Assembly: GCA_964016885.1 (NCBI GenBank)
Contig: OZ024741.1
Span: 273,668,001-273,732,000 of the forward strand
DNA: 64,000 nt
Direction: 5' to 3'
Source of the DNA: Eledone cirrhosa
Lineage: Eukaryota
Below the pieces are notes generated by a model that was not told the DNA's origin, searched no databases, and was given only the letters and a program-made list of their open reading frames with translations. Position numbers and translations under genes: made by a program. Positions 55,395 to 55,660 of this stretch are shown here, in pieces (positions within the stretch are counted from its first letter, which is position 1; the number at the start of each line of letters is the position of its first letter).

Positions 55395-55578
55395 TTAGAA
55401 CCCTGTAACCATTAAGCTCTAAGTATAAAGTACAAATAAATACTGATCCGATTAACAATATATAGTAAGAAACACAGTAAACCGTGTGTCTAAAATTACA
55501 AGGGTTGAAAAACCACATATGCTTGAAATATTTAACCAAGAAACAGACAGCAAATAGTGTTTGTGACATTTAATTGCA

Positions 55579-55660
55579 ATCTCTCGCTGATGAAGCCCAG
55601 GATTATCTATTACAAACACACTCAGGGCGAAACAGATTAGGGATAATCTGTCCGAGAGAT
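55579..55660 (+). ncRNA. Canonical type I hammerhead ribozyme, copy 1
   Basis: ATCTCTCG-CTGATGA-A-GCCC...GGGC-GAAA-CAGATTA-ggga-TAATCTG-TC-CGAGAGAT; all three stems perfect; GUC cleavage after C55652. Confidence 0.95.

Follow-up and report, generated by a model that had tools for sequence, protein, structure and literature searches.

A tandem retrozyme in the genome of Eledone cirrhosa carries a hammerhead motif in which a strand upstream of stem I and the loop of stem II are complementary over about two helical turns. We consider, with moderate confidence, that this duplex of 17–21 pairs acts, as a whole or in part, as a pseudoknot that keeps stem I next to stem II so that the RNA can cut itself. 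Such a pseudoknot would be about three times longer than the published ones with which it was compared. The element lies in a stretch of 64,000 nt (assembly GCA_964016885.1, contig OZ024741.1, positions 273,668,001 to 273,732,000, forward strand), called the window here, and all positions refer to it.

Architecture of the retrozyme and its hammerhead motif

The element is a tandem, non-coding retrozyme with a unit of 467 nt and one type I hammerhead motif per unit. Unit 1 (55551–56017, + strand) holds only short open reading frames, the longest of 102 aa, and is treated as non-coding. It is followed by a partial unit 2 (56018–56286, + strand), which stops at monomer position ~264 against a (TA)n run, and preceded by an inverted 5′-truncated arm (55382–55550, − strand), which covers monomer positions 171–339 and is 99% complementary. 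Exact core patterns found 229 young retrozyme copies, or 437 with older ones added, and gave 0 control matches. Tandem runs keep the 467-nt period through up to seven cores in succession, the arrangement of a non-LTR retrozyme, and the element matches described non-LTR retrozymes as far as the accessible text of these reports goes (PMC7229834; preprint 10.64898/2026.07.22.740005).

The motif of unit 1 parses as a type I hammerhead with an 8-bp stem I, the core CUGAUGA plus an extra A, a 4-bp stem II with a 26-nt loop II, GAAA, an 8-bp stem III and GUC. The 5′ strand of stem I (55579–55586, + strand) pairs with 55653–55660 and is followed by the core with its one extra nucleotide (55587–55594, + strand), by stem II with loop II (55595–55628, + strand; 55595–55598 pairing with 55625–55628), and by GAAA, stem III with a GGGA loop and the GUC triplet (55629–55652, + strand), with the predicted cut after 55652. 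The elements CUGANGA, GAAA and UH stand at a three-way junction whose stem I is open, as in type I hammerheads. The extra core nucleotide is A in copy 1 and T or G in older copies, and it is absent from the B, E and F subfamilies; one extra nucleotide after A9 has also been described for hammerheads of Penelope-like elements (PLEs; PMC4209133, in the part available). A second hammerhead in copy 2 (56024–56124, + strand; distal strands 56024–56035 and 56080–56091, 12 bp) has its predicted cut after 56124; the stretch that separates its duplex from stem I contains a 5-nt duplication absent from the other copies listed.

Among 50 copies, both sides change in 5/7 stem I pairs and 3/5 stem III pairs, stem II being outside the count, and stems I and III are backed by compensatory change. 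A small hairpin with an NGUU tetraloop lies 3′ of stem I (55662–55673, + strand) and is kept across subfamilies; it has 3–4 bp with differing stems, all three of its pairs change on both sides, and 92% of cells are paired. A second tertiary contact and a protein site are both possible roles for it. No Rfam hammerhead family of clan CL00010 reached its gathering threshold within the window (HH9, 15.6 bits vs 52), and in the six relatives tested the Rfam hammerheads gave 0 matches at E up to 1. Rfam matches to Entero_CRE were below threshold and were taken as chance.

Several other hammerhead-like motifs were observed. A very common type I family, which combines a palindromic AU stem III with a loop II that contains a hairpin, occurs in the window (14210–14266 and from 45752 onward) and at loci L014, L027, L030, L034, L049 and L053; several of its copies have a conserved upstream GGUAUG complementary to the start of loop II. 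Other long-loop type I families, outside the ten subfamilies compared below, are found at L159, L204, L163, L175, L064, L063 and L070, some with a shorter complementarity between upstream sequence and loop II. A small CUGAAGA hammerhead-like motif with a 6–7 bp stem II sits in a repeated element (window 22406 onward; L035, L081).

Duplex between the upstream strand and loop II

The pairing that the initial annotation proposed between a strand upstream of stem I and loop II is present: GTGTTTGTGA (55557–55566) and TTACAAACAC (55610–55619) form ten pairs, one of them G-U. Among 2000 dinucleotide shuffles of the loop, 36 gave a run as long as this one of copy 1 and 10 a run as stable. The run of copy 2 is indeed the longer, although it has 12 pairs and not the 11 proposed; 3 of 2000 loop shuffles were as long and 0 as stable. 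The A>G change to which this extension was ascribed runs in the reverse direction. Position 55609, in the loop II strand, is A in copy 1 and G in the family, including 98 of the 100 family copies listed, so that G is the family allele and copy 1 is the mutant, carrying G>A. The 79 arms have 14 A>G sites vs 17 T>C sites and so show no A-to-G excess of the kind that editing would leave.

The helix also extends towards the core. Five proximal pairs, absent from the initial annotation, join 55571–55575 with 55601–55605 past a 2×2 internal loop. The majority sequence of the window's own family (family A) has 17 pairs over 19 nt, 12 distal and 5 proximal, with 10 distal pairs in copy 1. The upstream strand comprises a distal part of 12 nt (55557–55568, + strand) and a proximal part of 5 nt (55571–55575, + strand); the loop II strand (55601–55619, + strand) is proximal at 55601–55605 and distal at 55608–55619, and a 5-nt return linker (55620–55624, + strand) connects the distal duplex end with stem II.

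Covariation among aligned copies of family A, through which the pairing was expected to reveal itself, is absent. The family keeps an 8-pair distal core with private or one-sided changes only, the one-sided changes in the duplex being A-U to G-U and U-A to U-G, and the flanks of this core and the stem III loop vary. Contigs of four sequencing runs list no variant of these eight pairs, but this is uninformative, as depth was low for organisms C and D and B had no cover. No RNA run is among the sequencing runs listed as holders.

Conservation of the duplex among subfamilies

Evidence for the pairing comes from a wider set of relatives. A pattern for long-loop hammerheads lacking the extra nucleotide gave 1003 matches vs 13 in the control, and 90 of the 100 listed were fetched; further searches brought in families G and E. 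The resulting 238 distinct segments comprise 208 in ten subfamilies, whose seeds are 55–87% identical, and 30 outside them. Eight segments with a truncated or foreign upstream region were dropped, which left 200 copies for comparison. A looser pattern search (75 matches vs 23 control) returned mostly unrelated sequences and was set aside, as was a pattern scan of non-viral metagenome contigs, whose two matches look by eye like bacterial coding sequence and lack stems I and III.

Across these 200 copies in four groups, the mean energy of the duplex between upstream strand and loop II is −17.1 kcal/mol for matched strands and −7.8 kcal/mol for cross-group strands. Without selection the two values should be alike. 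The control pairings give no such difference (upstream with downstream, −7.3 matched vs −7.6 cross-group; loop with downstream, −7.1 vs −6.9 kcal/mol), and neither the upstream strand nor loop II has in the 200 copies a subfamily-specific pattern of pairing with downstream sequence that would mark a conserved alternative; the loop/downstream duplex of family A has −11.9 kcal/mol. In 89 of the 115 copies tested, the upstream/loop II duplex beats 198 or more of 200 shuffles. Support in family E is weak, with 2/6 copies beating the shuffles, offsets of 0 or 2 and one cross-group value (−13.9) that beats its own (−12.6). The conserved pairing of the initial annotation is therefore borne out by the subfamily comparison, with a helix about twice the proposed length. 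That the complementarity arose by chance or was inherited without function is barely credible: the sequence is AT-rich and the single-copy shuffle test gave only 36/2000, but matched and cross-group energies differ by 9 kcal/mol, and the subfamily, alignment and tree tests contradict this explanation.

With the core held open, the duplex has a median of 17–21 pairs in each of the ten subfamilies, with differing letters. Families A and G were compared through the energy matrix and hand-set anchors. Under these anchors, the five columns after GUG/CAC read UA UA UA GC UA in family A and AU GU GC AU GC in B3; the first pair after GUG/CAC goes from GC to UA in family G, and mismatches fall at columns 4–5 in B1, B4, B5 and E and at columns 4 and 6 in G. 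The strong half of the duplex also varies, being distal in A and proximal in B1, B4 and B5. Its placement relative to the core is kept: on the stem I side, the gap between duplex and core exceeds that on the stem II side by 3–4 nt in 167/200 copies, with absolute distances (stem I/stem II side) of 11/7 in A, 8/4 in G and 7/3 in B3 and B5. The copy structure, this subfamily-specific complementarity and this register are read directly from the genomic copies. The at least four Watson–Crick pairs from the stem I side to loop II by which Perreault et al. (2011) recognise a pseudoknotted hammerhead are present here.

In the MAFFT alignment of all families the loop of family A lies three columns off, so the duplex pairs were counted on B/E/F only, in a sequence-only alignment of 35 copies. 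In this alignment 83% of duplex cells are paired and both sides change in 9/19 pairs, vs 37–50% paired when the register of the whole structure is slid. The percentage paired and the covariation score beat 500/500 shuffles; pairs with double changes (114/500) and pair types (488/500) are not in excess. On a tree of the 35 relatives built from the other columns, pair-to-pair double changes number 3 vs 0.54 expected (14/2000) and 56 of 108 changes lead to a pair (8/2000), with no excess of branches on which both sides changed (6 vs 4.2; 479/2000). G-U cells outnumber A-C cells (83 vs 26, of 655), which points to the sense RNA strand. The support for pairing is real, but it comes from few independent events, with only three compensatory ones on the tree.

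Proposed function of the duplex

A pseudoknot has to coexist with the active hammerhead fold. An unconstrained duplex takes at least 2 nt of stem I in 17/200 copies and of the 5′ strand of stem II in 37/200. In most copies the duplex thus leaves both stems free, as would suit a pseudoknot formed on the active fold. The median length of stem II is 2 bp in B3, B4, B5 and E. Together, the kept register, the little overlap with the stems and these 2-bp stems II suggest a brace-like role on the active fold, as in the pseudoknotted hammerheads described in PMC3088659 (in the sections available), and activation of the ribozyme by the pseudoknot is plausible from such sequence features.

We infer RNA folding, cleavage, rate enhancement and mobilisation by Penelope-like enzymes. 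As the transcript emerges, a long hairpin of upstream strand and loop II would form first, and its end loop of 15–25 nt would leave the 5′ strand of stem I, CUGAUGA and the 5′ strand of stem II unpaired. The downstream strand would then fold back and complete stems II, III and I, and the predicted cut after GUC would release 467-nt units.

The geometry of this fold may be demanding. By rough geometry with hand-entered spans, the return linker of 5–10 nt has to cover a helix span of 53–62 Å, which is 55–74% of its maximum reach; for the distal 12 pairs alone the value is 27%, equally rough. Since the linker is short and the helix long, the full duplex with a closed stem II would be taut. The active state may contain the entire duplex under tension or only a part of it. 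A lesser but real possibility is that cleavage needs either partial melting of the duplex or an exchange of stem II strands by adjacent units, so that tandem precursors are cut and circles are spared.

The first of these two routes corresponds to an attenuating clamp, in which the full duplex blocks closure of stem II, and units and circles cleave slowly until the distal half melts or a protein opens the duplex. We regard it as rather unlikely. Besides the taut geometry, it is favoured by nested folding, which gives −25.3 kcal/mol for the hairpin vs −22.8 for the plain hammerhead and, in linear and circular monomers alike, a probability of 0.99–1.00 for the hairpin with its distal helix and 0.00 for stem II. 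However, this model is one without pseudoknots, cannot hold both structures and so cannot score a pseudoknot. Miller and Silver reportedly described in 1991 a satellite RNA whose hammerhead is attenuated by an alternative tertiary structure, a precedent that counts for such a clamp. A mussel retrozyme lacking the usual loop contacts is also slow, at ~0.1 per min (PMC7229834, in the text available). Against the clamp, the duplex spares stems I and II and the core in most copies and keeps the register of the active fold, and stems II of 2 bp are expected to need support.

The second route is a dimer with swapped stems II, in which the hairpin of one unit offers its 5′ core half to the 3′ half of a neighbour, that is, to the 3′ strand of stem II, GAAA, stem III and the cut site; tandem precursors would be cut and single circles spared. 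The strain on the linker would then be gone, and the units do stand in tandem. Animal type I hammerheads are usually controlled by dimers through a weak palindromic stem III, according to the part of PMC4209133 available, whereas stem III is here a closed hairpin of up to 8 bp. This arrangement is pure conjecture, and the bound on reach leaves room for folding in cis, so we hold it to be improbable. Kissing loops of 6–7 bp have, by the same formula, a reach ratio above that of the long duplex.

Selection of the duplex for a non-catalytic role, for example circle stability or reverse transcriptase binding, seems to us just as doubtful as the swapped dimer. Pairing alone would not call for the degree of conservation seen in the distal GUG/CAC and in the UAG flanking it on the 5′ side, and hammerhead cleavage was dispensable for in vitro insertion of one Penelope-like element (PMC11167929, in the text available). 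Such a role would leave the fixed register to the core unexplained.

The initial annotation further proposed a switch through a helix between loop II and stem III. The helix exists on paper, with nine pairs (55600–55608 with 55641–55649; 18/2000 shuffles), and in A, older A and B3 the energy of loop II with stem III is −10 to −11 kcal/mol, stem III ends being mis-parsed in some of the copies compared. The switch itself is very unlikely. The pair probability is at most 0.0001 with or without the upstream strand, and the fold has −16.4 kcal/mol, 6.4 less stable than the plain hammerhead fold. The value falls to −3 to −6 kcal/mol in the other seven of ten subfamilies, and most older copies, with a different stem III loop, keep only six pairs. 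In addition, the helix can form only if an 8-bp hairpin opens, and it shares sequence with the conserved proximal duplex. The competing complementarity arises because family A uses a single 5-nt word for stem III and for the proximal duplex. For any switch, the long duplex itself is the better candidate.

Comparison with known hammerhead ribozymes

Pseudoknotted hammerheads of types I–III make up about 40% of representatives in the survey of Perreault et al. (2011, PMC3088659, text portions), and section 7 of the same article describes a type II hammerhead that cleaves more than 100-fold faster with its 6-bp pseudoknot, the register of which matters. As here, Watson–Crick pairing joins the sides of stems I and II in place of loop–loop contacts, and stems II are short. 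The pseudoknots described in the main sections have at least four pairs, with a tested case of 6 bp and a human case of 5 bp, and the supplementary alignments, which lie outside this comparison, may hold longer ones; the present duplex has 17–21 interrupted pairs, about two turns, and a return linker of 5–10 nt. The crystal structure of the PK hammerhead (Zhan et al. 2024, PMC11300833, accessible text) shows the same catalytic core and a pseudoknot as tertiary brace. Its 6-bp pseudoknot replaces helix II, whereas a 4-bp stem II is kept here, so the present motif does not belong to that class.

Animal non-LTR retrozymes (Cervera and de la Peña 2020, PMC7229834) likewise consist of non-coding tandem units with one type I hammerhead each. 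The unit of 467 nt exceeds the ~170–400 nt given in the available text of that article and falls inside the range of 51–972 in the preprint of Li, Clavereau and Pollet (2026, 10.64898/2026.07.22.740005, as far as accessible). The word pseudoknot is absent from the main text of PMC7229834. Minimal PLE hammerheads (Cervera and de la Peña 2014, PMC4209133, in part) have a long helix II, a short helix I, almost no helix III and act as dimers; the present motif has a short helix II, a long loop II and a closed helix III.

Control by such a pairing is also reported for a plant satellite RNA. Miller and Silver (1991) and Song et al. (1999) reportedly describe a stable loop 1–loop 2 pairing that controls cleavage of the sCYDV-RPV satellite, with a double hammerhead in multimers. 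The hammerhead of this satellite RNA (formerly barley yellow dwarf) receives mention in PMC6155905 and PMC7936874, in the parts available. It is a type III ribozyme, unlike the type I motif of the retrozyme. The literature searched held no report of a hammerhead pseudoknot of 17–21 pairs or of such an architecture, on which supplements could bear, and none of such retrozymes in cephalopods, in a coverage that mostly left out subscription papers.

Insertion structure and proposed mobilisation

The retrozyme units stand in tandem, often with an inverted 5′-truncated arm and (TA)n flanks. Among 110 arms, 48 have their 3′ end at monomer positions 263–268 and 23 at 339, and the 5′ starts are scattered. 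The inverted 5′-truncated arm, the fixed alternative 3′ ends and the (TA)n flanks are those of a Penelope-mobilised element, and the insertion structure matches the Penelope type in the available text of PMC8557442 and PMC11167929. Mobilisation by Penelope-like elements has been proposed for animal non-LTR retrozymes (PMC7229834; preprint 10.64898/2026.07.22.740005; text portions of both). A 6-bp hairpin (55784–55799 and 56256–56271) lies just ahead of the 263–268 end cluster and is a candidate signal for an internal start of reverse transcription.

Copy 1 does begin 6–7 nt before the pseudoknot strand, as the initial annotation had it, but the truncation point is not special. Ten of 110 arm starts fall in the 28-nt zone up to the pseudoknot strand vs 6.6 expected if uniform; two of these ten look like unit-junction artefacts, and two came from the search with copy 1 as query.

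The one young coding Penelope-like family compared, as a possible autonomous element with a homologous pLTR, is by sequence not the partner of the retrozyme: it has a different hammerhead, and its best match to the retrozyme monomer has an E value of 0.068. At loci L296–L325 a young Penelope-like family has an open frame of 821 aa, and 150/150 scored matches are 98–100% identical; some of these matches lie ~3.9 kb apart, and Pfam found nothing in a 394-aa part of the frame. Back-to-back fragments in the window (56873–57010) resemble, by eye, the hammerhead-bearing upstream region of the Penelope-like family at L300. Directly after the retrozyme lies a perfect 152-nt palindrome with a 2-nt spacer (56308–56613). 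On contig C1, four near-identical insertions that share their flanks lie within ~235 kb of one another (L053–L056) and represent a local segmental duplication. A 5S rRNA-like fragment (28144–28245, 44.3 bits) follows a (TA)n run and is possibly the head of a 5S-derived SINE.

Significance

Two search patterns for this layout match more than 1,400 intact-core hammerheads in a single animal genome, and those tested escape Rfam. The ten natural subfamilies are ready compensatory variants with which to find the length limit of a pseudoknot and whether cleavage is sped or braked. A long tunable clamp, if true, would also serve the engineering of switchable ribozymes. The duplex offers a direct and cheap handle on the question of how retrozymes can cut their multimers and still maintain stable circles; if partial melting or a swap of stem II is indeed needed for cleavage, it would be a new way of cutting tandem precursors while sparing circles.
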